Source of the DNA: Tidjanibacter sp.
GTDB lineage: Bacteria; Bacteroidota; Bacteroidia; Bacteroidales; Rikenellaceae
NCBI GenBank assembly: GCA_045576155.1
Contig: JAZNFV010000016.1
Coordinates: 20,654 to 84,653, forward strand
Direction: 5' to 3'
Length of the DNA: 64,000 nucleotides
A model generated the notes under the pieces. The model searched no databases. It worked only from the letters and a program-made list of their open reading frames with translations, and was not told the origin of the DNA. Below, one piece after another: positions 3,034 through 64,000 of this stretch. How positions within the stretch are numbered: the stretch's first letter is position 1; each line of letters starts with the position of its first letter. The translations under genes were made by a program, and so were the position numbers.

Positions 3034-4503
3034 ATGGCTACAAAGTTAATGCTATACAACACCCTCTCTCGCACAAAAGAGGTGTTTCGCCCCATCAACG
3101 AGCAGCACGTTGGTATGTATGTCTGCGGCCCAACCGTCTATGGCGACCCCCACTTGGGACACACCCGCCCCGCCATCACTTTCGACCTGCTGTTCCGCTA
3201 CTTGAAGGCGCTGGGCTACAAGGTGCGCTATGTGCGTAACATCACCGACGTGGGCCACCTCGAACACGATGCCGACGAGGGCGAAGACAAAATCACCAAG
3301 AAAGCAAGGCTCGAACAGCTCGAACCTATGGAGGTGGCACAATACTACACCAATCGCTACCACACCTTTATGGACAAGCTCGGTGTGTTGCCCCCCTCGA
3401 TTGAGCCTCACGCCAGCGGCCACATCATCGAGCAGATTGAGCTTGTAGGTCGCATCCTCGATGCAGGCTATGCCTACGAGAGCAACGGCTCTATCTACTT
3501 CGATGTGACCAAATACAACGAGCGCTTCCACTATGGCAAACTCTCGGGTCGCAACCTCGACGACGTGCTTGTGGGCACACGCGAGATTGACGGCCAGAGC
3601 GACAAGCGCAACTCCTACGACTTTGCCCTCTGGAAGAAGGCACAGCCCGAACACATTATGCGCTGGCCCTCGCCTTGCAGCGACGGTTTTCCCGGCGGGC
3701 ATCTGCAATGTACGGCTATGAGCACCAAGTATTTGGGCGAGCAGTTCGACATTCACGGTGGCGGTATGGACCTTATGTTCCCCCACCACGAGTGCGAGAT
3801 TGCCCAGTCGTGCGCTGCTTTGGGTCACGACTCGGCTCGCTACTGGATTCACAACAATATGATTACCATTGGTGGCCAGAAGATGGGCAAGTCGCTAGGC
3901 AACTTCATCACCCTCGAACAGCTCTTCACTGGCGCTCACGACAAACTCGAACAGGCCTACTCGCCTATGACCGTCAGGTTCTTCATCCTGCAAGCCCACT
4001 ACCGCTCGACCCTCGACTTCTCCAACGAAGCTCTGAAAGCTGCCGAGAAGGGCTACGACAGGCTTATGAAGGCTGTGGAGGTGCTTGGCAAGCTGAAAGC
4101 CTCGGAGAGTTCCACCGTCGATGTGGCCGACCTTCGCACCCGTTGCGAGGATGCAATGAACGACGACCTTTCGTCGCCTATGGTTATCTCGGCTCTGTTC
4201 GACTGGGTGAGGATTATCAACTCCATAGCCGACGGCAAGGAGCAGATTTCGGCCTCCGACTTGGAGGAGTTGCGTAGGGTTGTAAACCTCTATGTATTCG
4301 ACATCTTGGGTCTGCGCAACGAGCGCACCGAGGGTGCCGACGACAAGGTTGCTCCTCTGATGGATATGATTTTGGAGATTCGTCGCAACGCCAAAGCCAA
4401 CAAGGATTGGCCCACCGCCGACCTTATTCGCAACCGCCTTTCGGAGGTGGGTATCCGCGTCAAGGACAACAAAGACGGCTCAATGGATTGGGAGCAGATT
4501 TAG
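3034..4503 (+). CDS. cysS: cysteine--tRNA ligase
   Basis: CGPTVY, HLGH (HIGH-type), [32 protein letters not shown] 3034 follows an A-rich leader. Unusual substitutions are described under findings. Confidence 0.97.
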
Positions 4504-6106: not shown

Positions 6107-9100
6107 TTACTCTTTCTCAGTGTTTTTGTAGATACAAATTGCTGCCTGAGCATCGGTTGCAAGATTTGCTGTTGTCGAATAAGTAGAGAATCCACCCGAC
6201 GAAGACACATAATTGAAACGAACTACCTTGCCAGAACTCTTGGACGTAATAGTTGCTTCACCATCTGCTGCAACATCAATTGTCCAAGCACGACTATTGG
6301 ATGCTTTTGTTGTGTGCATTTTCAAACCACCAGTAGTGTAATACATATAATATGTGGTTCCAGATAAATCAAATTCAAATGCTACTGTACCATCACTATA
6401 CCCTTCCACAAGAGTAAACTTCTGAACATCTTTACTATTAACCTCCTCCGAAGAAATGGAATTACCGTTAATTACCACTTCGCTCTTCTTGGAGTTAGCA
6501 TTGTTGGCATGAGTACTTGTAAAGCAACCAAGTGCGTAATTTGCGTTCTTGGCTACAATGATTACCTCGTCGCCAATAGCGAGTTCGCTTGCATCGGTTA
6601 CAAGTACCCAACCCTTAACCTTTGCGGGGTCAATCTTCTGGGTAACGGTGACGGTGGTCGAAGCCAAACCGGTCTTGAAGGTAACATCTACGCTGCGAGC
6701 TGCCTCAGCCTCGTTGGTGGAGGTGAAGGTAACGGTAGCGGTGGTGTTCTCCGAGGTGGGGTCGGTGGTGTAGCTAATCGTTGCAAAGTCGCAATCGCCC
6801 ATCTCGTAGGTAACATCCAAGCCCGAGGTGGTTGCAATGCTGATGGTTGCAGTAGAACCAGCAGTGTACTCAGCAGCGGTAGCGGTAGCCTCAATGTTGT
6901 AGTGCGAGATGTAGTAGGCGGGCTTGCCGCTCTTACCTGCGGTCTCAACATCTGTCAGACGAGGAACTGTGATGGTAATCACGTCGCCTACTTTCAGATT
7001 GAGGTTGCCTGCAACATTCTGATTGGTTGATTCATCTACAAGACCCCTAACTTGGATAGGATCGCCGCTCTCATCATCAATGGTAAATACAGCGAGGCTC
7101 TGGAAAATATCCTCTGCCTCGATAATCCTACCAGTCAGCTCGTAGCGTACATATTCATTGTCGCTCCTGTCGTTTGCGGGGATTGCAATGTACTCAGCAA
7201 TGGTCATCTTGGGGATGAAGCCCTTTTGGAGCAGATTGAACTCCCAAGTGATGTCGGTCTGACCTGCAAGGGTAGCAGTGATAGTAACGGTAGTCTCACG
7301 AACAGCACCGAGGTTAGCCTCAGCAGTGTAGGTCAGGCAGTTGTTTGCTTTATCGAAAGCGAGCGAGGTAATCCACTCAGCATCGGTGGTGGCGGTAATA
7401 TCCCAGTCGCCAACATAGTTGAATACAACCTCGGGGATGGGAGTAGCGCTAACGGCTGCATCTTCGGAAATAACTGCATCGTTGGCGGTTACGTCGGCAG
7501 CAACTACGGGGATAGTACCCTTAACACCCACCAAGCGGTAGAGGCTCAGAGCTTGGCCAGTGCTGGTGCTACTGATAAAATACTTGCTTGTGTTGTAGGA
7601 GATATAGTTGCCACTGAACTCACCTGCAACATTTTTGATTGTAGCAGCGCCGTCGGCGATGGTAACATTGAAGGATGCGTTCTCATCAACATAGGGCTGA
7701 TTTTCGAGTTTTGCTACGCTTGCAGATGAAGAGGTGATGCTCGAAACAAGGAAGCCCTTGTTGGTTGCATCGTAGAATGCGAAAGTACCATCTACCGAGC
7801 CTGCGCCCAAAACAAAGGTCTGAACATCAAGCGCAGAGGGAACGAGGTAGTAGTTGCCAATCTTGGTAACAGCGGTCTCGGAGCGCCTGTCGGAAGCGAT
7901 AGTGGTGCTCATAGCCACATCGTAGTCCTTAGCAGCGATAATCACTTTGTCGCCTGCTTCGAGGGTTGCAGCGTCGGTCACAAGCTCCCAAGTGTTACCC
8001 TTTGTAGTATCAGCACCCTGAACGATAGCCACAGAGGTGGTTGCCAAGCCATCGGTAAAGGTAGCCACAACCTCACGAGGAGCACCCTCGTTGGTAGGCA
8101 ACTTAACGGTAGCCTCGGTTGCGTTCTCGGTGTAGATGAGCTGTGCAAACAACTCGCTAACGCTACCAGTGATAGTCTGAGGAGTGAGAGTACCACCCTT
8201 AGCGATAGTTACTTTCACATCGCCACCGCTGTATGCAACGTGGTCTGTTTCGACAGTTGCCGAGAGGTTGTAGTAACCCTGGCAAAGAGCGTGAGCCGAG
8301 CTGCTACCACCGTAACCACTATTCGTCTTAGTTGCCAAGATGGTAACTACATTACCTAAGGCATTTGCATCGGTATTATAGAAACTGCTCTTATTGTCGG
8401 CCGTATAAACATACCTAAATTTGGCCGTATTGCCCTTACCATCGGAAATCTCAGTATCAGAGGTGTTAGACTTAACGCTTGTAGTGATAACACCAGTAAC
8501 AAGATACTCAGCGTTTGCATCTACGCCCAACTTGGCAAAATCCTCAACAGAAATAGGCTGAGGCTCGCCCTTCTGAACAACTTTGAAAGTCTTTACGATG
8601 TCATCTTCGCCATCGTGCGAAGCGGTGATGGTAACAACTGCGTTGCGCACTGCACCAGTGTTGGCAGTAGCGGTGTAGGAGAGTTTCTCGTCGGCATAGT
8701 TAAGAGTGAGCCAATCGGCATTGTCGGAAACGCTAATAGTCCAGTCGCCAACATAGTTAAATGCGACAGTTTCAAATTCAGCACCAGTTGCACCCTCCTT
8801 ACCAATCACAACAGGACTGTTCTCAGCAGGTACGGTAAATTGTGCCTCGGGAGTAGGAACAACACCTTTCACACCACCTGCAATTTTGTAAATGCAAATG
8901 TCGTCGTGTTCGTTAGTAATGGTACTCGTACATCCAAATCTACGGTTGCTTGTTGTGTTGCCACCGCTATAAGCTCTATACCTCAGTTTCTTGTATGTAT
9001 GGTCGCTATCGGTTGCTTCAAGAGTCGCCGTACCATCCTCAATAGTAGTATAGAACAAAGACCTACCACTGGGAGTTGTTTGCACTTTCAGATTGTTATT

Positions 9101-10309
9101 TGTGCTATAAGTACATATATAACCACTATAACTGTCGCCATCATACTCGTTTGGCTGATTATAGAACTCAAAGGCATTCTCCTTGCCAGCACGAGGAGCA
9201 ACCACAAGGTGCTGAATCCTATTGTTTGCCTCACTTGCAGCAGCAATGGGGTGGTAGAGATAGTCGCCAATCTTAACAACCTCGGTATATGAAGCATAGG
9301 GATAAGAACTTGCCCATTTACCCATTACCCAATTATAATTCTTCGAAACGAAGGTCACAATGTCGCCTGCTTCGAGTTCGTTTACATCCCTAACAAGCAT
9401 CCACTTGTCGCCGGCAACAACGCCCTCCATATTCACGCCAAAGCGGGTAACCATACCTGCGGCGAATTGGAGCGACTTACCATCGGGAATAGTACCCTTC
9501 TTAACATAGATTTTATCCTCGGTAACAATGGTTACGGTGTATTCGTCGCCAGCAGCGAGGGTGGTGGGCATAAGGGTGAAATAAACTGCACCGTTATTTA
9601 CCGCGCCATCGATAGTAATGGTATCGCTACCCTCTGCAACCACGAAGTTGTGAGTGCCATCCTCATTGGCGATATTTTCGAGGTCGGCATTGATAGTACC
9701 TGCTATATTTTTGCCGTTGGCGGTGAAAATAACCTTCTCAATCGTACCCTCGACACCCTTAATAGACATCTTAGCCACAGCAGCCAAGCGAGTGAACTGC
9801 AAATACTGAGCCTCGGTGGGCTGTGCTGCGGTAGTAACCACCTTCGACACCATCAAATCGGCATTGGGGTCGTAGGAGGCATCGCTGTACATAGTCTGAT
9901 TGTTCGATAAGTAGAGCTTTGCAGCATAGATACTCTCGGAATCACTCTCATAATAACCGGATAGGGGATAGACAGCCACATACTTATACTCACTCTGGCC
10001 TGCATTGTGGTCAAAGGTTGCGGTGATAGTAGCTTTGCCCTCATCGTCTTTGGCATACTCTACATTAGTGGCAGAAGCAAGCGATGTGGTCTGCTCCAAA
10101 ACTGCGAAAGTTTCATTATTACCCCAAGCAAAAACAGGTACGTCGCCCGAAGTATCGACCGATGTACGGCTCTCTGCTGCCGAGTCGGCAACAAAAGTTA
10201 CAACAACCGACTCCTTAGCCTCGATTTTCTCCTCAATATCGTTCTGGCAAGCGGTAAGGCCCATTGCAGCTACTGCAAAAAAGGCCAACATTTTCATAAT
10301 CCTTTTCAT
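6107..10309 (-). CDS. 1400-aa fimbrillin-like adhesin lipoprotein with repeated beta/BACON/OB-like modules
   Basis: Lipobox LTA-C-QNDIEE, strand then SRT (type V pilin-like processing site), BACON motifs (DWLTLN...ANTGAVR; EWITS...ANLGAVR), three WxLVxDxxxLxxGDxV domains. Confidence 0.8.
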   Translation of the reverse strand: MKRIMKMLAFFAVAAMGLTACQNDIEEKIEAKESVVVTFVADSAAESRTSVDTSGDVPVFAWGNNETFAVLEQTTSLASATNVEYAKDDEGKATITATFDHNAGQSEYKYVAVYPLSGYYESDSESIYAAKLYLSNNQTMYSDASYDPNADLMVSKVVTTAAQPTEAQYLQFTRLAAVAKMSIKGVEGTIEKVIFTANGKNIAGTINADLENIANEDGTHNFVVAEGSDTITIDGAVNNGAVYFTLMPTTLAAGDEYTVTIVTEDKIYVKKGTIPDGKSLQFAAGMVTRFGVNMEGVVAGDKWMLVRDVNELEAGDIVTFVSKNYNWVMGKWASSYPYASYTEVVKIGDYLYHPIAAASEANNRIQHLVVAPRAGKENAFEFYNQPNEYDGDSYSGYICTYSTNNNLKVQTTPSGRSLFYTTIEDGTATLEATDSDHTYKKLRYRAYSGGNTTSNRRFGCTSTITNEHDDICIYKIAGGVKGVVPTPEAQFTVPAENSPVVIGKEGATGAEFETVAFNYVGDWTISVSDNADWLTLNYADEKLSYTATANTGAVRNAVVTITASHDGEDDIVKTFKVVQKGEPQPISVEDFAKLGVDANAEYLVTGVITTSVKSNTSDTEISDGKGNTAKFRYVYTADNKSSFYNTDANALGNVVTILATKTNSGYGGSSSAHALCQGYYNLSATVETDHVAYSGGDVKVTIAKGGTLTPQTITGSVSELFAQLIYTENATEATVKLPTNEGAPREVVATFTDGLATTSVAIVQGADTTKGNTWELVTDAATLEAGDKVIIAAKDYDVAMSTTIASDRRSETAVTKIGNYYLVPSALDVQTFVLGAGSVDGTFAFYDATNKGFLVSSITSSSASVAKLENQPYVDENASFNVTIADGAATIKNVAGEFSGNYISYNTSKYFISSTSTGQALSLYRLVGVKGTIPVVAADVTANDAVISEDAAVSATPIPEVVFNYVGDWDITATTDAEWITSLAFDKANNCLTYTAEANLGAVRETTVTITATLAGQTDITWEFNLLQKGFIPKMTIAEYIAIPANDRSDNEYVRYELTGRIIEAEDIFQSLAVFTIDDESGDPIQVRGLVDESTNQNVAGNLNLKVGDVITITVPRLTDVETAGKSGKPAYYISHYNIEATATAAEYTAGSTATISIATTSGLDVTYEMGDCDFATISYTTDPTSENTTATVTFTSTNEAEAARSVDVTFKTGLASTTVTVTQKIDPAKVKGWVLVTDASELAIGDEVIIVAKNANYALGCFTSTHANNANSKKSEVVINGNSISSEEVNSKDVQKFTLVEGYSDGTVAFEFDLSGTTYYMYYTTGGLKMHTTKASNSRAWTIDVAADGEATITSKSSGKVVRFNYVSSSGGFSTYSTTANLATDAQAAICIYKNTEKE

Positions 10310-10324
10310 AGTCCAGAAAAATTT

Positions 10325-10483
10325 TTAGAGTTCAATCCATTCATCGCTGCCCTCTTCTCCGCCAATATATCCGGAGTCTTGACCGGGCGTACCTGCCCCA
10401 CCAAATGGGCTGGCTGCAATACCGTTCTCCACAACTACATCCTCGACGCAGATTGTGGGCTGTGTGTAAATACTCTTTTTCAT
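10325..10483 (-). CDS. 52-aa small peptide (not in ORF track), leader/core-like
   Basis: MKKSIYTQPTICVEDVVVENGIAASPFGGAGTPGQDSGYIGGEEGSDEWIEL*; A-rich initiation region aacaaacaaaaaacact-ATG; homologous to the peptide at 61246-61374. Confidence 0.8.
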   Translation of the reverse strand: MKKSIYTQPTICVEDVVVENGIAASPFGGAGTPGQDSGYIGGEEGSDEWIEL

Positions 10484-10530: not shown

Positions 10531-12177
10531 CTAATTTTGTTCCTTCACGCACCTAACCGATGCACCATAGCAACGTGCGCCATAGGAGTACCACGCAGCC
10601 ATCTCAGCACCGTCCATAAGAGGATAGATGCCGTAGTAGATGTCTTCGAAAGCCACGAAAAGCGTTGCCGCCTTGCCAAAGCCCTGATAGCCACTACCAA
10701 AGCTCTCCGATGTCCAATAGAGCATCCTCTCGCTCGTCTCGCCCATAAGGCCCGACACATCGAAGTTGCCCACGCTGGGGAAGTAGTCGCCATTGCCACC
10801 GCTCCACGTCCAACCGTAGTCGGCAGCCTCCCAGTCGCGACCCACATAGGAGCAAGCGTAGCCCGCAGGAATCTCGCCAAAAGCACCAACAGGAGGCACT
10901 ACATAGCCCACTGGGCAGGGGTCGAAGATAGTCTTATAGTCGCTACCTCGCTCGCCACTACCCCAAAGGTTGGAGTCGGACTGCTGCATAAGGCCACCAA
11001 CGCCCTCCAAATCCTGCAACAAGTACCAGTCGAAGACATACTCGCCAATGGGAATATCGACCCTGCAACCGAGGAAGGTGGTGGGATTCTGCAAAGCGTA
11101 GTCTATATTGCCGGGGGCGCGGAGTGCCACAGGGGCAATCTCGCCCACATAGCTCCACTCAAAAATACCCTCGCCCCTCTGCTCGTTGTTCACATTGAGC
11201 ACCGCGCGCACAGCCTCAATCTCGGCCTGCACTCTCTCATACTCCTCCTCGCTCTCCAAGATGTTGAAATCCTCGTCGTGGCGATGGGTGGGCACACTCT
11301 GATACTCCACTGGCGAGGGCAGGAAGGGCTCTTTGCGACCCCACTGGTAGAGCATACCACGATTGGCCACATCGCCCACATTGTTGTTCAGTGCGCCCAA
11401 GTTGCGATCCATCCACACCAAGCCATCGGCACTGGTGGATGTGCCAACCTCGTCGGCCACAACCCAAATGTGCCAGCTCCAAAGTATCTGGCCATCGGCA
11501 CTATGGAGTGTCACCAAAGCGTTACCCTCGCTCTTGCCCGTAGCAAAATAAATCTGTTTCTGTTCGGGCAGGTAGAGAGGTGTGCCGTCGATAATCTGTG
11601 TGCTGCGGGTTTTGTCGCCGTCGAAGGTGGCCTCCCACGCCAACTCGGCATAAGATGCGCCCTCAATGCGTGAGCCACAGGCGGCAATGTAGTTGGAGTT
11701 GCCGTCGCGCTTGGCGTTACCCTTGACAGAGGCATCGAAGCGGTAGGTGGAGTTGGGTTTGGCGATGTAGCAGTTGGCCGTACCCTCCTGCGAGAGTATC
11801 TTGGTTTCTGAGCCCTCCTGCAACACTTTCAGGCGTGCTCGGGCCACGTCGGGGTCACTACCGGCAACCACATCAATCACACCCAAGCGGCTTGGGCCAG
11901 AGTTGTTGGCATCGACATAGATGGTTATGGCGTTGCCCTCGACGCTCACATCGAGCCAGTCGATTTGGTGTTGCACCTCCAACTCAATGCGGTTGGAGGC
12001 AATGTAGATAGTCTTGATACCACCCTTCTCGGCAATGGTTGTGGTCTGCGACGAGAGCTCCACAAAGGCGTAGTCAGCCTCGGGCTGCAACACCTCGGCA
12101 GGCTCGTTCTGGCAACCCACCAAAACACCCATCATCAGGGTAGCTAAAAGAATAATATATTGATTATAACGTTTCAT
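10531..12177 (-). CDS. BACON + fimbrial-tip-like lipoprotein (Fibrobacter succinogenes major-domain-like C-terminus)
   Basis: Lipobox LVG-C; motifs TANCYI, ILWSWHIWV, WMDRNLGA, LYQWGRKEPF, DPCPVGYVVP, SVRCVK. Confidence 0.8.
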   Translation of the reverse strand: MKRYNQYIILLATLMMGVLVGCQNEPAEVLQPEADYAFVELSSQTTTIAEKGGIKTIYIASNRIELEVQHQIDWLDVSVEGNAITIYVDANNSGPSRLGVIDVVAGSDPDVARARLKVLQEGSETKILSQEGTANCYIAKPNSTYRFDASVKGNAKRDGNSNYIAACGSRIEGASYAELAWEATFDGDKTRSTQIIDGTPLYLPEQKQIYFATGKSEGNALVTLHSADGQILWSWHIWVVADEVGTSTSADGLVWMDRNLGALNNNVGDVANRGMLYQWGRKEPFLPSPVEYQSVPTHRHDEDFNILESEEEYERVQAEIEAVRAVLNVNNEQRGEGIFEWSYVGEIAPVALRAPGNIDYALQNPTTFLGCRVDIPIGEYVFDWYLLQDLEGVGGLMQQSDSNLWGSGERGSDYKTIFDPCPVGYVVPPVGAFGEIPAGYACSYVGRDWEAADYGWTWSGGNGDYFPSVGNFDVSGLMGETSERMLYWTSESFGSGYQGFGKAATLFVAFEDIYYGIYPLMDGAEMAAWYSYGARCYGASVRCVKEQN

Positions 12178-12228
12178 ATCGTCTTGTTGTTTATTCCTTT
12201 TACACATTCACTTCTCCTCTTTTGCAGA

Positions 12229-15200
12229 CTATTGCCACGATGAGGGCATCAAGTCGTAGTCGTCAAGACCGCTGCACCCGGCAAAGCAATCCTCGTGGGC
12301 CGAGGTGCTGGAAGGCACGGTAAGGAACTCCGTACCTCGTGTACGCTCGTAGAGGTGTACCTTCTGCTCCACTCCGTCATCGCCAACGATAATCGTATAG
12401 GGCGACTCGCCGGTGAGCGAAGAGCAACCATTGAAGCAGCTGTCGATATAGTTGATGCGCCTAACCGTATCGAAGAGCGCTGCGGGCAGGCTCGCAAGCG
12501 AGCTACAACCCATAAAGCACTCCGAAAAAGTGATGCTCGACGTCTTTGTGCCGATGGCAGCAAAGAGCTCGGCGGGCAGCTCGGTCAGCGACTTACAGCC
12601 CGAGAAGGTGCTCTCGAAAGAGGTGATAGCGGGCGACTGAGCGAAGAGCTCGGCAGGAATAGTTTTCAGCGACTTACAATCCTTAAACATACCCTTCACA
12701 GTTGTGATCTTCTCCTTGCTACCAAGCAGGTCGGCAGGCAGACTCTCCAACGAGCTACAACCATTGAAGGTGTCGGAGAACTGGGCGGCCAGACTATTCT
12801 GGGCAAACAGACCTGCGGGGAGCGTTTTCAGCGCGGTGCAATTCTTAAACGTAGCCGTAAACTTGGTTTTCGATGCAGCCAGAGGGTCAAACAACCCCTC
12901 GGGCAAGCTCTCCAAAGCTGTGCAGCCCTCAAATGTGTAGGCCAAAGTGCTCACCGACGAGCTCTCGGGGAATACGCCACTCTCGATGGTGGTCAGGCAG
13001 TCGCAACCATTGAATGTATTTTCAAAGCCCTGAGTTACGGCCGTATTCTTAGCAAACAAGCCCGAGGGCAAGGTCTCGATGGCCGACCCCGAGAAGGCAT
13101 ACTTGAAGCCGGGCGAAGTGACTGCCGTAAAGGTCTCAAAGAGGCCTGCGGGCACAGTTTTCAGGTTTCTACATCCGGCCAACATATAGGAGAAGTCGGC
13201 CGAGGAGTAGTTGCGTGCGTCGGCAAACAGAGCCTCGGGTATGCTCTCCAAGGCGGAGTCCTCAAAGGTCGATTTGAACTCATAGGCGGCAGTCAAACCC
13301 CTAAACAGACCCTCGGGAATCTCTCTGAGCGAGGTGCAACCCGAGAAGCAATACTTAAACGACTTGGCAGCCGTAAGTCCGTCGAACACACCCTCCTCAA
13401 TCTCGCTCAAAGCAACGCAATCTTGGAACACAGCACCGATGGTCTTAACTGCCGAAAGACCCTCAAACAGACCTGCCGAGAGCTTCTCCACACCAGTGCG
13501 GTAGAAGATATATTCGAGGTTAGTGACCGACGAGTTGTTGGTAAACATACCCACAGGCAAATCCTTCAAGCTCGTGCAACCGGCAAAGAGATATTTGATG
13601 TCGGTAGCCGAGGTAGCCTTGCTCAGAAAATCCTTAGGCACGCTATCGAGATTGACACAAGCCGAGAAAGCGCCCGTAAAGATTGTAGCATTGGTGCAGT
13701 AGGAGAACAGAGCTTCGGGCACCTCCTTGATGGCAGTTGCGCCAAACGTGTAGTCGAGTTGTTTGGCTTTTGGACAACCTGCAAAGAGGTCGGCAGGGAT
13801 GCTGGTGAGCTTACCTGCGCTCACAATAGTTTTCAACTCATCGAGGTTGCCCAAAGTAACGTTGGTAACAATGTAGCCCGAGCCTGTGCCGTAGAAGGTG
13901 TAGGAGAAATCTTCGGCAGCAGCGCAGTTGGCAAACAGACCCTCGGGGATGGCACTGATAGAGCCGGAGTGGCTAAAACAGTCCTCAAAATTCTTGGCCA
14001 CAGTGGCGTGGCGGAACAGACCCTCGGGAATTTCCCTAAGGCTCTCGCAGCACGAGAAAGCGCCAATAAACGACTTAACACCCGCAAACGAGCCTGCTAC
14101 ATCGTTGGGAATGCTCTCCAAGTTGTTGCAACCCAAGCACATATCGGCAGCATTGGTCAATCCCAGCAGACCCCACGAAATGATATTCTTCAACTCGGGA
14201 GCCAGATTGTCGCCATCGCTAAACTCCAACGACTTAGCCTCGCCTGTGATTGATATGGTGTAAAGGCCGGGCTCTTTATAGATATGGCTACCGCGACGCG
14301 AGTCGAAAACCTCCACCTCAGAGCCGTCGCCCCAATCAACACTTATCGAGCCACCCGAAGAGAGGGTCAGCACAGGGGCAGCAATCAGCGTATAGTCGGG
14401 CTCGGTAATCTCCACCTCATAGATGAGTTCGTCGGTGTCTGTACCAATCTGATGCACCCTGAGAGTGGCTTTGGCCAAGTTGTCCTCGTCGCCAACCACA
14501 ACCTCCACCGTGCCGAAGCGCTCCAAGCCGTTGGCATTGGATGCCACCGTCACCACAATCTCGCCCTCACCCTTAGTGGCGGTAAACCAGTCGCTACCGT
14601 CGGTCGTAATACCCCATTCAAGCTCGGGGTTGGAGGTGAGTATGATGTGTCTTTCGCCTCCGCCATCGTCGGTGGCCACATTGTGGCTCGAAAGCACCAC
14701 AAAGGCATTACCATCCTGCATAACTGTAAGTTCGTCACAGAGCGCATCCTCCTTGTTGGGCACAGTGAGCCTAATTTTTGTGGTGCGCTGAGCATTGAAC
14801 TTGTTGTCGTCGGCAGTGAGCCTCAGACCCTCCTCGCACTGTTCCACAAGCAACCACGAGCAGGTGCAGTCAAACGACCACTCATCCACATTGCTCTCCA
14901 CAGCCACTATCTGCTGCAACTCCGTATGGGCCTTTACCCTAAGGCTGTTCTGACCCAGCACCACCTCGGCATTGCCCGAATGGTTTTGCCTAACGGCCAC
15001 CTCAAAGCAGGCCTCCTCATCGCCACGCGAGGCCCTAATTTCAATCACACCACTACGAGCCTCTGTGCCACCATTGGCCTCGGCTGCAATGGTCAGGAAG
15101 TAGTCGTCGGCACTCACCGAGAGCCAATCGCCACCCTCAACAACATCGTAGCGCCACTCGGCTTGGTTGGTCAGCACATCGAGCACAACTTCGCCTCCGC

Positions 15201-15387
15201 GAGTGAGGAAACGTACCTCGGCCTTAGCAGCGTCGGCAGCCTCAAAAAATCCGCTCTCGGAACTTACCTCCAATGTCAGGCGACCTTCCGATTGAGGAGG
15301 AACTATCTCCACAGGGAGATCCTCCACACAAGCCACTGCACCAAAAAGCAGGGCCACACTCCACATTATCCTACTGAGTTTTTTCAT
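12229..15387 (-). CDS. BACON + PKD-like + BspA-type leucine-rich-repeat surface lipoprotein
   Basis: Lipobox AVA-C; three BACON-like units; SVDWGDGS; many FxxCxxLxxIPxxLF repeats. GTG at 15393 is an alternative start. Confidence 0.85.
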   Translation of the reverse strand: MKKLSRIMWSVALLFGAVACVEDLPVEIVPPQSEGRLTLEVSSESGFFEAADAAKAEVRFLTRGGEVVLDVLTNQAEWRYDVVEGGDWLSVSADDYFLTIAAEANGGTEARSGVIEIRASRGDEEACFEVAVRQNHSGNAEVVLGQNSLRVKAHTELQQIVAVESNVDEWSFDCTCSWLLVEQCEEGLRLTADDNKFNAQRTTKIRLTVPNKEDALCDELTVMQDGNAFVVLSSHNVATDDGGGERHIILTSNPELEWGITTDGSDWFTATKGEGEIVVTVASNANGLERFGTVEVVVGDEDNLAKATLRVHQIGTDTDELIYEVEITEPDYTLIAAPVLTLSSGGSISVDWGDGSEVEVFDSRRGSHIYKEPGLYTISITGEAKSLEFSDGDNLAPELKNIISWGLLGLTNAADMCLGCNNLESIPNDVAGSFAGVKSFIGAFSCCESLREIPEGLFRHATVAKNFEDCFSHSGSISAIPEGLFANCAAAEDFSYTFYGTGSGYIVTNVTLGNLDELKTIVSAGKLTSIPADLFAGCPKAKQLDYTFGATAIKEVPEALFSYCTNATIFTGAFSACVNLDSVPKDFLSKATSATDIKYLFAGCTSLKDLPVGMFTNNSSVTNLEYIFYRTGVEKLSAGLFEGLSAVKTIGAVFQDCVALSEIEEGVFDGLTAAKSFKYCFSGCTSLREIPEGLFRGLTAAYEFKSTFEDSALESIPEALFADARNYSSADFSYMLAGCRNLKTVPAGLFETFTAVTSPGFKYAFSGSAIETLPSGLFAKNTAVTQGFENTFNGCDCLTTIESGVFPESSSVSTLAYTFEGCTALESLPEGLFDPLAASKTKFTATFKNCTALKTLPAGLFAQNSLAAQFSDTFNGCSSLESLPADLLGSKEKITTVKGMFKDCKSLKTIPAELFAQSPAITSFESTFSGCKSLTELPAELFAAIGTKTSSITFSECFMGCSSLASLPAALFDTVRRINYIDSCFNGCSSLTGESPYTIIVGDDGVEQKVHLYERTRGTEFLTVPSSTSAHEDCFAGCSGLDDYDLMPSSWQ

Positions 15388-15401
15388 CTTCACATCAACA
15401 A

Positions 15402-16568
15402 TTAGAGGTTCGTAGTCATTTCGTCATTATGCTTTCTGAGCGTGATGGGCGACATTGGGAACATTGTGGGGCGATAGTTCGAGCCGAGAGCCACTTTGTT
15501 CTCGTTCTCGTCGTAAGTCCACAAGCCAAAGCCAACATAGTTGAAACCTGCAACAGTGGGCATATCAAAAGCAATCACATTTCCATCCTCCTCGGGCAAG
15601 GCCTCCACCTCGTAGGCCGCAAAGGAGAACTGACGGTCGGAGACCAGAGTGATGTAGAAAAAGACGTTGTAGGAGAATACTGTCCATCCAAAGGGAATCA
15701 CCATACCTCCCGTAGAGCTGTCGTAGCGCACCTCCAACTCAGTGCCGGGGTAGAGAAAATTCTTCATCACCAGCGTCTGGCCATAGACTCCCTCCTCGAT
15801 GTCGAAGATAAGGTAGTAGTCGCTTGGATTGGGCGAGTAGTCGAGGCTATTGAGCGAGCCGTTGGGCGAGTAGAACCACTTTGAGGAGACAATCTCCCAC
15901 TTTCCAACGAGTTTGTAGTAGGGGTTGTTGGCCCTGATGTCCTGCTTCACCTCAATGTCGAGGCTCTCCTGCTGCACACCACTACCCACCGTTAGGCGCA
16001 GCGTTGCAGTCAGAGGCTCTTCTTCGAGGTTGGGAGCTGCCACAACAACAACTTTGTTGTCCTTCTTGTCGCACTCAACACTCAGCCACTCGGCCTGGGT
16101 CTCTACACTCCACTCGTCGTTGGCCACAACCACAAAGCTAATCTCGCCACCCTCGGAGTCGAAAGCATAGTTGGTCGCAGCACTCGTACTCCAAGAGAGC
16201 TCCTGAGCGCCCTCCTGCGAAACAGCCACCTCGTAGGGCTCGAAACGACCCTCGGGACTAACCAAACGGAACGAGGCACTACGAATGGTGGAGGCTGTGT
16301 TGGGCTCAACACTCACCTCTACACCCTCGGCCACACTCTCGATGGTCGCCCACTCGGGCTGCTGGGTAATCTCCAACTTCCACGCCTCCTCCTCGGGGAA
16401 AGGGGCAACCGATAGGAGCTTTGCTCCACCCTCGGCATCGAATACAACACTCTGCTGCGAAAGTGTCAGTCCATAGACAACAATAGGCTCAGGCTTGCTA
16501 CACGAGCTAAGTGCCAGTGCAGTTGCAAGACCGAGCAACAATGCCGACTTCACGACTCTCAATTTCAT
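15402..16568 (-). CDS. BACON-domain lipoprotein
   Basis: Lipobox LSS-C; two BACON-like units (FDAEGG...W...NT...R; FDSEGGE...WLSV). Confidence 0.8.
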   Translation of the reverse strand: MKLRVVKSALLLGLATALALSSCSKPEPIVVYGLTLSQQSVVFDAEGGAKLLSVAPFPEEEAWKLEITQQPEWATIESVAEGVEVSVEPNTASTIRSASFRLVSPEGRFEPYEVAVSQEGAQELSWSTSAATNYAFDSEGGEISFVVVANDEWSVETQAEWLSVECDKKDNKVVVVAAPNLEEEPLTATLRLTVGSGVQQESLDIEVKQDIRANNPYYKLVGKWEIVSSKWFYSPNGSLNSLDYSPNPSDYYLIFDIEEGVYGQTLVMKNFLYPGTELEVRYDSSTGGMVIPFGWTVFSYNVFFYITLVSDRQFSFAAYEVEALPEEDGNVIAFDMPTVAGFNYVGFGLWTYDENENKVALGSNYRPTMFPMSPITLRKHNDEMTTNL

Positions 16569-16653
16569 ATAAATCAATAGGTTATTAGTAAATTTTTCGC
16601 TGAAAAAAAATATATCCGATTAGCCCACTCACAGCAACCGAATATGCAACTTT

Positions 16654-59070: not shown

Positions 59071-59865
59071 TTACTCCATCTCGGGAAGGTCGATGTAGAG
59101 CATAGCGGGACGGTTCTCGGTAGTACCGTCGCCCTCGCCTACCAAATCCTCGGCCGAGTACTGAGGCAGCTGACCTATCGACGACCAATCCTCGGTCTCG
59201 ACAATAGCGCCAATACCAATGGTGGAGGCCATATCGACAGCGATTGCGGGACGGAGCAACGAGCACTCAAACAGAGCTTTGTCCTCGCTCTCAACAACAG
59301 GCTCTATGGCAGCCACAACACCAAAGAGGCCGAGATCCTCCCAAGCCCACTCAGGCATCATATCAGCACCAGTGTAGATATCGACACCGGGGTTGTAGGC
59401 CGAAGTGCCACCATAGAAAGCACCCTGCAACATAAGGCCTGCGCAGTTGCTCCAAGCGTAGTAGCGACCAGTTGCGGGGTCGTTGTCTTGGTCGATGAAG
59501 AGATCCAAGTAACGCACGCCCGAGTAGCTACCAAGCTCCTCGATATACTGACCGCGAGGGTCAAATTCGAGATAGATGTAGATGTAGAGCTCGTCGGCGT
59601 GGAGTTTGAGAGTTTTCAGCACAGGGTAGGTGATAGTGCCCTCGGTGGGGAGGGTAGCCACAGCCACCTTGCTTGCATCCAGTGCGGCCCAGTCATCGAA
59701 AGCGCCATCAATGGTCACAGCACCCTTAAACTCCTCTTCCTCCTCTTCGGGCTCTTGGTTCTCAACGTCGGGTTTGGGGTTGGGTTTTTTGGTATCATCC
59801 TCCTTGTCGCCACAAGCGATAAGCATAGCCGCAACAGCAGCAATTGCAATAATCTTTTTAATCAT
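59071..59865 (-). CDS. Surface lipoprotein with DOMON/CBM9-like domain (paralog A)
   Basis: Lipobox LIA-C; VTIDGAFDDW, LYIYIYLE, FIDQDNDPATG. Confidence 0.75.
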   Translation of the reverse strand: MIKKIIAIAAVAAMLIACGDKEDDTKKPNPKPDVENQEPEEEEEEFKGAVTIDGAFDDWAALDASKVAVATLPTEGTITYPVLKTLKLHADELYIYIYLEFDPRGQYIEELGSYSGVRYLDLFIDQDNDPATGRYYAWSNCAGLMLQGAFYGGTSAYNPGVDIYTGADMMPEWAWEDLGLFGVVAAIEPVVESEDKALFECSLLRPAIAVDMASTIGIGAIVETEDWSSIGQLPQYSAEDLVGEGDGTTENRPAMLYIDLPEME

Positions 59866-59911: not shown

Positions 59912-61207
59912 TTAGTTGTGTACGGGAATAACAAGAGTACCAGTTGCAGGCAAAACACCCGATGCACCCCAATTCGACAAAACATAAGCTGCTACGCCAA
60001 TATTCTTAGTAGAGATTGTGGGCAATTCTGCACGAGAGATTGCAAACTCTGCATATAATACACCATTTTCCAAAACTGGCATTGCGCCATTGATAGTGAA
60101 CGTGCCGACCTCTGCTCCGTTCTCGTAGATTGTATTGCTACCCCACTTATACTGAATGAGGGCACTATTGTAGATGCACTGATTCTTCATAAGAGCATCA
60201 CCAGTACCAGTCCAACGACAATCAGTATAAGTGCCACCAGTTGCTTGGTCATTATCCAAATCAAGGAATACGCCCATATGCAGCACATCACTTACTTTCT
60301 CAATCTCAACATAAACATAGATATTATCTTTGTCTGCATAGGTTTTCAGGGTTTTCATAGAAGCATAAGTTGCGCCATCGGCAACAGTAGCCACATTCTT
60401 AGTGATATTTGCCCAATCGGTAAATACGCCATCAATAGCGATTTCAATACCAGCAGCATCGCCATCGGCAAGCACCTCTTCGGGAGCGTCAATAGTACCG
60501 AGGTTGTAGATTTTGTTTTTCTCCAATGTGACAGTAGTCGATTTAACCACCTCGCCCTTCACGGTAGCCGAAAGAGTCATCTCACCCTTAGCAAAGAGAG
60601 GAATGTAGGTAGTACCAGTAGAGGTGGTAGTATATGTGTTGTACTGGCCAATACCCCAACTTTTAATCAATGCAAAGGCATTTTTGCTGGTAGTGAGGGT
60701 TACAAGATAGTCGGAGGTGAGTTTCAAGACTGGTGCAGCGCTCAACGAGATAGCCGACTGACCCAATGCATCAGTGCTACCATCCATAACGATACCATCC
60801 AAACCAGCCGAGCTGTCGCAGAGTACGCCCTGACCTGCAACACCGCAACCCAAGTAGAATACCGACATTGGTTGGCCCACAATTGCGCTAACGCCCTCGG
60901 TTTTGCAAGTAAATACAAAGCTATCGCCATCGGTTTTGGTGTAGGTAAACCAGAAATCGCGCTCGTCGCCATAGCCACCCCAAGCGTCGGTTACGCAGAG
61001 CTGGTCGCCCTCCTCGAAGGAGAGTTTGTAGCCTTTGCCCTCCTCAAAGTCGCCCAAAGCAACCCTTGTGGGCTCGTCGATGGTTACGCAAATCGAAACC
61101 GATTCGCCCTGCTGTTCGGGTTTAACGCCCTCCTCAATATCGTTCTGGCAAGCTACTGCGCCCAAAGCTACAATAGCACTTGCGAAAATGTAGAAAATCT
61201 TTTTCAT
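59912..61207 (-). CDS. Fimbrillin-like lipoprotein with C-terminal DOMON/CBM9-like domain
   Basis: AVA-C-QNDIEE, strand then TRV, GDQLCV; C-terminal IAIDGVFTDW...FLDLDNDQATG. Confidence 0.75.
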   Translation of the reverse strand: MKKIFYIFASAIVALGAVACQNDIEEGVKPEQQGESVSICVTIDEPTRVALGDFEEGKGYKLSFEEGDQLCVTDAWGGYGDERDFWFTYTKTDGDSFVFTCKTEGVSAIVGQPMSVFYLGCGVAGQGVLCDSSAGLDGIVMDGSTDALGQSAISLSAAPVLKLTSDYLVTLTTSKNAFALIKSWGIGQYNTYTTTSTGTTYIPLFAKGEMTLSATVKGEVVKSTTVTLEKNKIYNLGTIDAPEEVLADGDAAGIEIAIDGVFTDWANITKNVATVADGATYASMKTLKTYADKDNIYVYVEIEKVSDVLHMGVFLDLDNDQATGGTYTDCRWTGTGDALMKNQCIYNSALIQYKWGSNTIYENGAEVGTFTINGAMPVLENGVLYAEFAISRAELPTISTKNIGVAAYVLSNWGASGVLPATGTLVIPVHN

Positions 61208-61245: not shown

Positions 61246-61374
61246 TTACCACTCTACATCCTCCTCGTTCAGGTAGATGTCCTCCACAAGGCCGTTGGCA
61301 CTTGCAGCAATGCCCTGCTCGATTACCATATAGGCGACCTCCAATGCGGGCGAAACGTAAGTGTTCTTTTTCAT
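61246..61374 (-). CDS. 42-aa small peptide, homolog of 10325-10483
   Basis: MKKNTYVSPALEVAYMVIEQGIAASANGLVEDIYLNEEDVEW*; A-rich aaaacaaacaaa-ATG. Confidence 0.8.
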   Translation of the reverse strand: MKKNTYVSPALEVAYMVIEQGIAASANGLVEDIYLNEEDVEW

Positions 61375-61598: not shown

Positions 61599-62315
61599 TT
61601 ACTCAGCATAGTTGATAGTAACGTTGAACTGAGGAGCCAAACCGTTGGGATCCTCCTCCGAGATAACGTTGCAAGGAAGCAGACCGCAACGACCCCAGTC
61701 TTTCGACAAACCTACACCCATAGTGAAGCTTGCGCCGAAGTCCAAAGGAAGCATATCACGAGTTACCTGAATCTCGTAGCCAGCAGCGGTACCCATACCT
61801 GCGCAAGCACCTGCGATGCAAGCATCAACATCCCAGCTCCAACCCTCAGCACCGATCTCGCCGCTCCAAGGATAAGCCTCGCCACCATACTCAACAAAAG
61901 CGCCCTCGCTATATACAGCACCCTCGATGAGGTAGTCAACACCAGCGTTGCTCCATACGTTTGCATAACCACCGGTCATCTCATCGTTGTCGATGTTGAT
62001 GCAGAGGTCGATGTGGTAAACGCTTGCAGGATCGGGCTCGTTCGACTCGTAGTAAACATAGATGTAGAGGTCGTCAGCGTAGATTTTAACTTTCTTCAAT
62101 TCGCTGTGCAGGGTCTCGCCCTCGGGCAGAGTGGCCTCAACAACCTTGCTTGCGTCGAGAGCAGCCCAGTCACCAAACTGACCGTCGATAGTAATTGCGC
62201 TTACAAACTCGGGCTCGGGCTCACCACCGTCAACGGGTTTTTTGTTCTCTTCACCATTGTCGCCGCAAGCGATCAACATAGCAGCCATAGCTGCAATTGC
62301 AAAAAATTTTTTCAT
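61599..62315 (-). CDS. Surface lipoprotein with DOMON/CBM9-like domain (paralog B)
   Basis: Lipobox LIA-C; ITIDGQFGDWAALDASKV, LYIYVYYE, INIDNDEMTG. Confidence 0.78.
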   Translation of the reverse strand: MKKFFAIAAMAAMLIACGDNGEENKKPVDGGEPEPEFVSAITIDGQFGDWAALDASKVVEATLPEGETLHSELKKVKIYADDLYIYVYYESNEPDPASVYHIDLCINIDNDEMTGGYANVWSNAGVDYLIEGAVYSEGAFVEYGGEAYPWSGEIGAEGWSWDVDACIAGACAGMGTAAGYEIQVTRDMLPLDFGASFTMGVGLSKDWGRCGLLPCNVISEEDPNGLAPQFNVTINYAE

Positions 62316-62446: not shown

Positions 62447-64000
62447 CTATCGGGGGTTCTGACCGATGTCGTTTACGTTCAACTCATCCTGAGGAATCTG
62501 GAAGGGAATACGGTCGTCGGTGTACTCCACAACCTCCCAAGTGTGAAGACCTGCAAAGCGACGGTCCATCGACATCTTGTTCCTCCAAGTGTCGAATGCA
62601 CGATGACCCTCGAAGCACAACTCCAAGCGACGCTCAGCAAGTACAACCTCCAACAAGTTGGCGTAGCCGTGATCCTGCCACCTGTGGTCGGTATCGTTCC
62701 ATACGGGGATACCTGCACGGGTGCGGATAACGTTTACGTCGGCCAAAGCACCAGCCTCATCGCCAGCTTTCAGACGAGCCTCAGCACGGTTGAGAACAAC
62801 CTCACCCCAGCGAACAATGATGGGCGACGAAAGGTTGGAAAGACCATCCTGATTGGAGAATTTCTTCTGCATATAGATGGGGTAGTTGTTACGCAGACCT
62901 TTCAGGCCAACGTTGGGACGTACATAGACTTTGGTCTTTGCACCCTCGTAGGTGATGAAGTACTCGGTGTAGCCGTTGATAACCTCAGGGGTAGCAACAT
63001 ACGATGTGCCCGAGTAGGTGAAGTTGCAAGTACCATCGGCATTCTTGGTTACGCCACGAACAACAGCGTTGTTTCGGAAAGCACCACCCTCATCCAAAGG
63101 CCAGTGTACCATAACCAAACCGTCGTTGGTGGTGTCGTAGAGCTCATACTGAGCCTCCTGACGTTTGTCCTCGGGGTAGCGCTCGAAGAGCTCCAAGAGG
63201 GTGTCGGAGTAGTAGTGCTCGCACCAGCCAATACCACCAGTACCATTGGGCGAGTAGTACATCGAACCCAAGCTACCAGTACCCTTATCCTCGGTGGCGG
63301 TGTGAGCTACGCACCAGAGCACCTCGTTTGAAGTGCGAGCGTTGGTGAAGAGGGTCGAGTAGTTAGAATCGAGCTTCGAGGCAATGTTGCCATAGTCGCC
63401 AGCGCTGCCGGTGAGCATAGTGTTCACAGTCTCGATAACCTTGTCGTACTCCTCCATATAGAGATATACGCGCGAGAGAAGACCCATAGCAGCCTCGTAG
63501 GATACATAACCTTTGTCGCCACGAGCGCTCTTGCCCTTCATCAGGCGAGCAGCCTCTTCGAGGTCGGCTACAACCTGAGCATAAACCTCACCTACGGTAG
63601 CACGCTCAGTTACGGAGCAGTCGGTAGAGGTACGCAAGATAACACCGGGGTTGCTCTCACCACGCGACAGAGGCCTTGCAAAGATGTTCACAAGGTTGAA
63701 GTGAGCAAGAGCCCTGAAAAAGTAGTTCTCGCCCTTCATATGTGCAGCCTCGTCGGAAGCGTTCTCGTCGAGAGCCTCGATGTTGGAGTTAGCCGAGTAG
63801 ATAATCTTATAAGCCAACCACCAGAAACCCTGATTGTTGTTCATAGTTGCGTTGTCGTCGTAGGTGAACGCATAGGAGAAGGGGTCGGAGGTAATACCCG
63901 ACAAAACTACGTTGTCGGCGCGATACTCTGCCATCTGGAAGAAGTGACGAACATAGCTATTGCCACTTGCGTAGATGTTCTTGTACTGCAACTCATCTTT
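62447..64000 (-). CDS. RagB/SusD family lipoprotein, 5' end beyond the window
   Basis: GENYFFRALAHFNLV, AAMGLLSRVYLY, RWGEVVLNRAEA, ERRLELCFEGHR, FQIPQDE..N; frame open to the window end. Confidence 0.95.
   Translation of the reverse strand, partial: KDELQYKNIYASGNSYVRHFFQMAEYRADNVVLSGITSDPFSYAFTYDDNATMNNNQGFWWLAYKIIYSANSNIEALDENASDEAAHMKGENYFFRALAHFNLVNIFARPLSRGESNPGVILRTSTDCSVTERATVGEVYAQVVADLEEAARLMKGKSARGDKGYVSYEAAMGLLSRVYLYMEEYDKVIETVNTMLTGSAGDYGNIASKLDSNYSTLFTNARTSNEVLWCVAHTATEDKGTGSLGSMYYSPNGTGGIGWCEHYYSDTLLELFERYPEDKRQEAQYELYDTTNDGLVMVHWPLDEGGAFRNNAVVRGVTKNADGTCNFTYSGTSYVATPEVINGYTEYFITYEGAKTKVYVRPNVGLKGLRNNYPIYMQKKFSNQDGLSNLSSPIIVRWGEVVLNRAEARLKAGDEAGALADVNVIRTRAGIPVWNDTDHRWQDHGYANLLEVVLAERRLELCFEGHRAFDTWRNKMSMDRRFAGLHTWEVVEYTDDRIPFQIPQDELNVNDIGQNPR

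Follow-up and report, generated by a model that had tools for sequence, protein, structure and literature searches.

What does a 52-residue peptide do beside the gene for a 1400-residue surface lipoprotein, and is it made as a protein at all? The question is raised by a 64,000-nt stretch of DNA from Tidjanibacter sp. (contig JAZNFV010000016.1; this whole stretch is called the window below), in which a short open reading frame (ORF) of 52 codons plus a stop occupies positions 10325-10483 on the minus strand, directly ahead of such a lipoprotein gene. Comparison across Bacteroidales genomes demonstrated that the gene is real and under protein-level selection, and that its pairing with lipoprotein genes recurs at most of the family loci evaluated. 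We think it probable, if by no means certain, that the product is a two-part precursor whose leader would be presented to enzymes by a RiPP recognition element (RRE; RiPP, a peptide synthesized ribosomally and then modified post-translationally) and cut by an S26-type peptidase, and whose tail would be exported by an ABC transporter, each precursor being paired with a pilin-fold lipoprotein.

A small-peptide family under protein-level selection

The gene at 10325-10483 encodes the peptide MKKSIYTQPTICVEDVVVENGIAASPFGGAGTPGQDSGYIGGEEGSDEWIEL (52 amino acids; family profile match E = 1.8e-22). It divides into a conserved leader, residues 1-25 (MKKSIYTQPTICVEDVVVENGIAAS; 10409-10483, minus strand), containing a YxxPxΦ motif and a G-[IF]-A-x-S junction, and a variable acidic tail, residues 26-52 (PFGGAGTPGQDSGYIGGEEGSDEWIEL; 10328-10408, minus strand), presumed to be the exported part. 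As read from the sequence, a spacer of 15 nt (10310-10324, minus strand) separates the peptide stop codon from the lipoprotein ATG at 10309. A second copy in the window (61246-61374, minus strand; 42 amino acids plus stop; E = 7e-15) encodes MKKNTYVSPALEVAYMVIEQGIAASANGLVEDIYLNEEDVEW and is followed after a gap of 38 nt by the gene for a 431-amino-acid lipoprotein; a near-identical paralog of this copy is present in the same genome (C26:51307-51435). Over their first 25 residues the two window peptides align without gaps, with 13 identities (M, K, K, Y, P, V, V, E, G, I, A, A and S). Both the 52-residue ORF with its stop 15 nt ahead of the 1400-residue gene and the 13 identities in 25 had been put forward in the original prediction, which was made from the letters of the DNA, and both were reproduced, by the coordinates and by the gap-free alignment, respectively.

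A six-frame profile scan of the Tidjanibacter genome itself (1.9 Mb in 42 contigs, 91% complete) identified six copies, located on contigs C10, C16 (two), C17, C26 and C30 (E = 1e-14 to 2e-22). In a profile search of 1.84 billion cluster representatives the family comprised at least 376 clusters at 50% identity (E ≤ 1e-3), nearly all of 32-60 amino acids, and a word-index search gave 55 relatives, few of which bear any name, and then only 'hypothetical protein'. A close homolog in NCBI, MBO5806507.1 ('hypothetical protein [Tidjanibacter sp.]'), agrees with the earlier suggestion that similar short ORFs may already be annotated without function. Named matches in the public genome collection were all from Tidjanibacter metagenome-assembled genomes. 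Pfam and NCBIfam scans of both window peptides yielded no match at E ≤ 0.1, and literature searches with leader strings, small ORFs, RRE-containing clusters and HprK-related terms returned nothing on the peptide family. Of 201 Rikenellaceae genomes, 87 carried the family, as did 13 of the 31 genera, and a single genome could have as many as 12 copies; among the other Bacteroidales it is rare and patchy, with 8 positive genomes from six families out of about 298. One public gene call of 457 amino acids (P0439) shares a 90%-identity cluster with a 57-residue family peptide, and this call may read through into a downstream lipoprotein.

Family alignments define a leader of 24-25 residues with the pattern MKK-x-Y-x-x-P-x-Φ-E-Φ-x-x-Φ-x-Φ-E-x-G-[IF]-A-x-S, in which Y6, P9 and E19 are invariant and G21, A23 and S25 nearly so. 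Among 194 distinct family members, which form the basis of the residue statistics for junction and tail given here, the junction has Gly at -5 (191 members), Ile or Phe at -4, Ala at -3 (192 members), a variable residue at -2 and Ser at -1 (190 members). Tails are 7-38 residues long (median 21), rich in Gly (18%), Asp plus Glu (24.5%) and aromatic residues, with less than 1% Lys plus Arg, a hydrophobic share of about 29% and a net charge that is always between -2 and -9; Cys is essentially absent, occurring in a single tail. The last residue is Leu, Trp or Phe in 73% of members and the penultimate one Asp or Glu in 53%. The leader does not qualify as a Sec-type signal peptide, a candidate that was rejected because acidic residues interrupt the would-be h-region (3-4 Asp or Glu in residues 10-20, the invariant E19 among them), nor as a double-glycine bacteriocin leader, the junction being G-[IF]-A-x-S with no GG or GA motif.

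Selection on the peptide was assessed at the codon level. Mean entropy over the 20 codons from Tyr6 to Ser25 in 27 distinct DNA copies was 0.92, 0.68 and 1.55 at positions 1, 2 and 3, respectively, and the pooled ratio of non-synonymous to synonymous change (pN/pS) was 0.24 in the leader and 0.50 in the tail. These data indicate that selection acts on the peptide at the protein level. Constraint is strong on the leader and differs between subfamilies on the tail, the tail ratio being near 1 in the closest ortholog pair and the tail of the subfamily ending in WYEQGGQGDF being strongly constrained. Purifying selection, the absence of which had been named beforehand as a reason to abandon the idea of a functional peptide, is thus evident both in the leader ratio and in the third-position entropy, the highest of the three. 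Gene conversion or a DNA-level recombination cassette as the cause of leader conservation was ruled out, synonymous sites being nearly saturated between paralogs.

The paired surface lipoproteins

The pairing of peptide and pilin-fold lipoprotein is robust. All six copies in the Tidjanibacter genome lie directly upstream of a lipoprotein gene, and among the roughly 231 lipoprotein-like ORFs of that genome no others have the pattern C[QET]N[DE]..E..strand..[ST]R following their lipobox, a correspondence far greater than chance would give. Tabulating the gene downstream of homologs, a check suggested at the outset, gave such a lipoprotein for about 40 of about 47 evaluable copies in related loci (hand count over listings), other Bacteroidales families included. 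About eight related loci had a spacer of 15-16 nt between peptide and lipoprotein; elsewhere its length ranged from 4 to 45 nt. The other neighbours of the pairs are unrelated housekeeping genes. Tail subfamilies track lipoprotein subfamilies; WYEQGGQGDF tails, for example, occur with ACTNEPEEG lipoproteins. Since each precursor has a lipoprotein of its own and the subfamilies track one another, a cognate interaction between tail and lipoprotein is the simplest reading, and the mature tail most likely acts on or with its cognate lipoprotein, speculative as this is.

The 1400-residue lipoprotein downstream of the first copy (6107-10309, minus strand) has a Pfam BACON match and 616 homologs, some of them named 'BACON domain-containing protein [Alistipes]'. 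Its layout consists of a lipobox with Cys21, an acidic QNDIEE stretch, an anchor strand, an SRTS loop (...GLTAC-QNDIEE...VVVTFVADSAAESRTS), a pilin-fold N-terminal region and a C-terminal extension with BACON repeats. The acidic stretch after the lipobox Cys we take to be a Bacteroidota surface-lipoprotein export signal, and the conserved-Arg loop suggests a predicted Arg/Lys cleavage site. An AlphaFold2 model of the N-terminal 330 residues (9320-10309, minus strand; mean predicted local distance difference test score (pLDDT) 82.5) shows a two-beta-sandwich module resembling type V pilins, with a strand at residues 34-41 followed by a stretch of lower confidence (residues 41-60, mean pLDDT about 57-61). 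The top Foldseek matches in the PDB were 'cell adhesion proteins' from Bacteroides that belong to the type V pilin superfamily (3t2l, 4k4k, 4h40, 4dgu, 3ufi, 3up6 and 3pay) and the Porphyromonas gingivalis proteins Mfa3 (5nf4) and Mfa2 (5nfi), with probabilities of 0.99-1.00 and E = 1.6e-9 to 9e-4, and with TM-scores of only 0.23-0.55. The N-terminus of the protein is accordingly modelled as a type V pilin (FimA/Mfa) fold. The lipoproteins had no match to the fimbrillin families in Pfam or NCBIfam, and sequence and profile searches against the PDB returned nothing meaningful.

The 431-residue lipoprotein paired with the second copy (59912-61207, minus strand) begins with homologous elements (signal, anchor strand and TR loop) and ends in a CBM9-like domain, which in the AlphaFold2 model (pLDDT 84.3) matches the CBM9 structure 1i82. 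A fold search with the whole model gave only CBM- and Ig-like matches and none to pilins; as the model contains several domains, this search is uninformative on the fold of the N-terminal domain. BLAST likeness between the two window lipoproteins is confined to the first ~45 residues, and hhalign extended the homology to the first ~100 residues of the 431-residue protein against the family of the 1400-residue protein (96.4% probability). The C-terminal parts differ, BACON repeats in the one standing against a CBM9-like domain in the other, and relatives carry CBM26 or pullulanase-associated domains. Two statements of the original prediction thereby received support: that both peptides precede a lipoprotein with a lipobox, ACQNDIEE, a strand and [ST]R[TV], which is what the sequences contain, and that the 1400-residue protein is fimbrillin-like or pilin-like, in line with its Foldseek matches to Bacteroides type V pilins.

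Several further features of these lipoproteins and their surroundings were observed. The 1400-residue protein has three W-x-LV-[RT]-D-x-x-x-L-x-x-GD-x-V-[IT]-[IF]-[VA]-[AS]-K modules interleaved with BACON-like segments (window 6107-9300, minus strand), for which no Pfam match was obtained. The first pair shows a loose likeness, VVVENGIAAS in the leader of the peptide against VVVTFVADSAA in the anchor strand of the lipoprotein, that is absent in the second. Upstream of the first copy and on the same strand (10531-16577) are three surface lipoprotein genes of 558, 1054 and 391 amino acids, the first with a weak BACON match (E = 0.007, under the cut-off) and the second with leucine-rich repeats in appearance, as judged by eye. 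The 558-residue gene lies 47 nt from the peptide ATG and no TAnnTTTG box is found there, so that the first copy may be co-transcribed with these lipoprotein genes; across the family such a -7 box precedes the peptide in 14 of 27 loci, which indicates that the peptide is often the first cistron. The cassette of the second copy is flanked by paralogous stand-alone lipoproteins that share motifs with the CBM9-like domain (59071-59865 and 61599-62315, both minus strand) and lies just downstream of an ORF that by eye resembles susD (62447-64000, minus strand), and from these neighbours it appears to be inside a polysaccharide-utilization-type locus. Genes for DNA/RNA non-specific endonucleases (PF01223, DRGH-type motif) directly follow several peptide-lipoprotein cassettes (L033-L035 10308-11093; C10 ~3670-4503, plus strand, in the Tidjanibacter genome; L059 1962-2651, minus strand), and one homolog of the 1400-residue protein (P0346) has an OB-fold match (PF01336). 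The endonuclease-linked subclass of lipoproteins may bind, or help to degrade, extracellular nucleic acid.

A candidate processing cluster and the proposed maturation pathway

A single-copy cluster on another contig of the Tidjanibacter genome (C23:33857-37540) encodes, in this order, an ABC exporter (570 amino acids), an S26-like peptidase (152), a PqqD protein (91) and an HprK-like protein (295). The PqqD gene product matched PF05402 with 49.5 bits (C23:36095-36292). The peptidase has invariant GxSMxP, LHR and GDGN motifs, presumably the Ser/His pattern of Sec11/SipW-type S26 enzymes. The ABC protein aligns along its length with an ABC transporter of genome G357, from another Bacteroidales family, which contains only ABC_membrane and ABC_tran domains; a C39 peptidase domain, looked for on the exporter as part of the comparison with double-glycine bacteriocins, was not present. 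In G357 a homolog of the peptide, MKKLYTSPEIEVVEVIEYGFAASEPLGRSKVSQSFEEEEF, heads an RRE operon and has no lipoprotein gene after it; it is followed by genes for an HprK-related P-loop protein (287 amino acids), an S26-like peptidase (149), a PqqD protein (112; PF05402), an NTP_transf_5 protein (369; PF14907) and an ABC exporter (546). The cluster was also found, with shuffled gene order, in G052, G101, G206, G351 and G467. Family members stand beside it in three other genomes and 5.5 kb away in a fourth: besides the G357 operon, G052 has peptide, lipoprotein, ABC, S26, PqqD and HprK-like genes on one strand, in G101 the ABC gene of the cluster points away from peptide and lipoprotein (divergent orientation, about 650 nt apart), and in G351 a family member lies ~5.5 kb upstream on the same strand.

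Peptide and HprK-like genes co-occur strongly. Among the 201 Rikenellaceae genomes, 81 had both, 6 the peptide alone, 10 the HprK-like gene alone and 104 neither (odds ratio 140), and four of the six genomes with peptide and no cluster are less than 90% complete. At the genus level the corresponding numbers were 13, 0, 3 and 15 (p = 3e-6), and across 301 Bacteroidales genomes 10, 1, 24 and 266 (p = 9e-10; p = 5e-7 without Tidjanibacter itself); phylogeny enters these statistics only through the genus-level and order-level counts. These comparisons show that the cluster exists, that elsewhere it adjoins members of the family, and that the two co-occur. The only NTP_transf_5 gene of the Tidjanibacter genome (C14:25384-26484) was not counted in the system, as it sits among rfb-like and glycosyltransferase genes. 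The 346-nt gap between PqqD and HprK-like genes on C23 (36308-36652) contains tandem repeats (gggtcgcagg three times, ccctaa-type, ttttgaa four times), and G052 has a 246-codon ORF inserted at the same position.

On the pathway that we favour, the PqqD-type RRE would bind the leader through its YxxPxΦ motif, as in lasso-peptide leaders, and present the precursor to the enzymes of the cluster. The kinase-like enzyme may then modify the precursor, an optional step; the S26-type peptidase would cut the small-x-small junction, as G-x-A|x-S or A-x-S|, which lies 17-20 residues beyond the motif; and the ABC transporter would export the acidic Gly/aromatic-rich tail ending in [DE]-[LWF]. One cluster would in this way serve dispersed precursor genes, six in the Tidjanibacter genome. 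The peptidase is assigned as the cutting enzyme because a small-x-small junction suits it, and the order of binding, modification, cleavage and export is suggested by the lasso-type motif together with the RRE, peptidase, kinase-like enzyme and exporter in the cluster.

Several points weigh against this pathway. The HprK-like protein is far under the curated cut-off of TIGR04352 (19-24 bits against 200), with a match in the P-loop region alone, and so does not qualify as a member of HprK-related kinase A (HPr-rel-A); the S26-like peptidase is likewise under that of TIGR02228 (25-34 bits against 51.85). Eight of the 194 tails have no Ser, Thr or Tyr, so that there is no universal kinase target in the tail, and Pro directly after the conserved Ser, seen in 30% of members, would by analogy with classical signal peptidase I block a cut right after Ser. 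Ten cluster-bearing genomes have no detectable peptide, and the co-occurrence is partly phylogenetic, the whole genus being positive. Finally, as the cluster is on another contig in the Tidjanibacter genome, its link to the peptide rests on comparative genomics.

The original prediction had offered three roles for the peptide and stands in part. Its picture of a bipartite peptide with a fimbrillin-like lipoprotein holds, and of the three roles that of a RiPP-like precursor with an RRE-bound YxxP leader has the most support, from the RRE cluster that adjoins the family elsewhere and co-occurs with it; the objection raised at the time, that no modifying enzyme is adjacent, is answered by the single-copy cluster located elsewhere in the genome. 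Two observations disfavour a mere translational-coupling leader: strong purifying selection on the amino acids, and the connection with a cluster far away in the genome. Tail composition speaks weakly against the remaining role, that of a free donor strand or chaperone, which survives only as something the exported tail might do.

The best surviving alternative, which we nonetheless regard as unlikely, is that the peptide is a stand-alone partner of the lipoprotein, unrelated to the RRE cluster, and acts as a cytoplasmic chaperone for the signal and anchor-strand region or as a donor strand for the pilin groove. No conserved linkage is tighter than that of peptide to lipoprotein, with its short and often 15-16-nt spacers, and what is conserved in otherwise divergent pairs is the start of each partner, the N-terminus of the peptide and the first ~45-100 residues of the lipoprotein. 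In type V pili, donor strands are absent from tip pilins, and it is the final one or two donor-strand residues that initiate strand exchange and release the acceptor from its lipid anchor (PMC13655056); the tails, for comparison, end in Leu, Trp or Phe. However, a stand-alone role leaves the strong co-occurrence with the cluster unexplained and does not fit the G357 peptide, which heads an RRE operon and has no lipoprotein. With no Sec signal and an acidic would-be h-region the peptide would need another way out, and the Gly- and acid-rich tails are poor strand formers.

Slightly less probable is that the peptide is a processed and exported signal or antimicrobial, for instance a pheromone, or a bacteriocin partnered by a receptor or immunity protein, and that the lipoprotein is merely co-transcribed. 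Leader, RRE, peptidase and ABC exporter are the architecture of a secreted RiPP, some tails evolve almost neutrally or diversify, and in G351 genes for a dCache histidine kinase and a response regulator-PP2C protein lie between the peptide and the cluster. Six precursors, each with a different pilin-fold lipoprotein, in a 1.9-Mb genome and the tracking of tail by lipoprotein subfamilies suggest cognate pairs instead, and strongly anionic tails almost free of Lys and Arg are, from general knowledge, unlike cationic membrane-active peptides. The G351 locus (L060, G351:C4, 4301-14161, minus strand) reads in full peptide, dCache-HAMP-GAF histidine kinase, response regulator-SpoIIE phosphatase and M28 peptidase, then NTP_transf_5, ABC, HprK-like and S26-like genes on the same strand; this layout resembles a peptide-signal module and is a single instance.

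That the ORF is purely regulatory, its translation or coupling controlling the lipoprotein gene and its product having no function, is improbable. Its place immediately upstream, the short spacer and the frequent -7 box would suit such an element, but the constrained leader preserves its near-invariant residues while synonymous sites change, the [DE]-[LWF] ending is conserved at the C-terminus, and there are family members without a lipoprotein as well as co-occurrence with a distant cluster. A chance ORF or conserved non-coding element, to which shortness, omission from an earlier ORF track and the empty Pfam and NCBIfam scans might point, is hardly credible: variation at the third codon position is double that at the first two, the family comprises 376 clusters with proteins of similar size, and gene calls by others exist, such as MBO5806507.1.

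If the tail is exported as the favoured pathway proposes, a more specific role may be considered, for which we hold out little expectation. The acidic tails could be soluble donor-strand mimics that enter the groove of the cognate pilin fold after loop cleavage and displace the lipidated anchor strand; by analogy with donor strands, a free tail ending in Leu, Trp or Phe could in principle start strand exchange. The Gly- and acid-rich, poorly hydrophobic composition of the tails counts against it. Were it true, a giant adhesin or glycan-binding protein would be stabilized or released without a stalk pilin, and maturation or shedding of surface lipoproteins would be peptide-triggered and dependent on RiPP machinery.

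What is new here is the lasso-type YxxPxΦ motif in the leader and the apparent tie of the family to the ABC/S26/PqqD/HprK-like cluster; no description of the gene arrangement, with peptide, pilin-like lipoprotein and separate processing cluster, was found in the literature. As read from the genes, it would represent RRE-dependent peptide maturation coupled to type V pilin-fold surface lipoproteins. If this is correct, substrates have been found for a widespread orphan RRE cluster of gut Bacteroidales, the pathway is leader-dependent with lasso-type recognition, a protease of signal-peptidase type and no cyclase, and maturation of ribosomal peptides is linked to surface proteins of type V pilin fold. 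With BACON, CBM9-like and CBM26 modules on the lipoproteins, one of which lies beside a susD-like ORF, the system may bear on the display or shedding of glycan-binding adhesins by gut Rikenellaceae (Tidjanibacter, Alistipes). It also opens to testing a family of small proteins, at least 376 clusters in size, whose members are at present annotated as 'hypothetical' or missed altogether.

Comparison with known systems

The closest likeness is to lasso peptides of the paeninodin and BsfA type with split B1, K, N and D genes. Lasso leaders have YxxPxL at positions -17 to -12, which is read by the PqqD-like B1 protein, and this RRE boosts the leader peptidase as well as an HPr-kinase-like enzyme used in tailoring (PMC10368454); genes for HPr-kinase-like proteins and nucleotidyltransferases are known lasso accessories (PMC7533575). 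The present family shares the Y-x-x-P-x-Φ motif, with Y6 and P9 invariant, Ile, Leu or Val at position 11 and the junction 17-20 residues after Y6, and it shares a PqqD-like RRE in a cluster that adjoins family members (G357, G052 and G101), an HPr-kinase-related P-loop protein, a McjD-like ABC exporter without peptidase domain and, in some genomes, NTP_transf_5. It differs in that a Sec11/SipW-type S26 peptidase stands in place of the B2 transglutaminase-type peptidase (PF13471, no match in the Tidjanibacter genome), in the lack of a cyclase and in precursor genes that are dispersed and paired with lipoprotein genes. For an Asn-synthetase-like cyclase (PF00733) the same genome gave no more than two matches, both marginal and partial (model positions 12-82, in the N-terminal part) and both away from the cluster, on different contigs; no cyclase was seen in the six other clusters examined. 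The hypervariable tails have no Asp or Glu conserved at core positions 7-9 or at a fixed distance from the junction. Given a genome without B2 peptidase or real cyclase and tails without a conserved ring-forming acid, the system is not a lasso system, and an ordinary lasso peptide precursor is about as implausible as a chance ORF.

The cluster peptidase has its nearest counterpart in Bacillus SipW (S26B), which acts on TasA and TapA: both are small membrane peptidases with GxSMxP, HR and GDxN motifs, and the substrates have small residues at -3 and -1. Unlike the situation in Bacillus, the substrate proposed here would be an RRE-presented leader without a hydrophobic core.

On the lipoprotein side, the proteins downstream of the peptides resemble those of type V pili in being lipoproteins with an anchor strand, a conserved-Arg loop and a predicted two-beta-sandwich fold like that of Mfa3 and Mfa2. 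As in type V tip pilins, there is no recognizable C-terminal donor strand and a large C-terminal extension follows the pilin module. They differ from type V pili in matching no Pfam fimbrillin family and in their very large non-pilin extensions (BACON, CBM9-like, CBM26). In addition, no gene for a stalk or anchor pilin was seen next to either of the window genes, nor in the two loci for which genes had been called. No description of a small-peptide partner for type V pili was found in the literature.

As a genetic arrangement, the system is most readily compared with dispersed RiPP precursors such as the prochlorosins, which likewise have scattered genes, a shared leader, hypervariable cores and a single processing locus. 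Enzymes and chemistry differ, the cores here having no Cys and Ser or Thr not being universal in them, and so does the genomic setting, since each precursor here has a dedicated neighbour gene.

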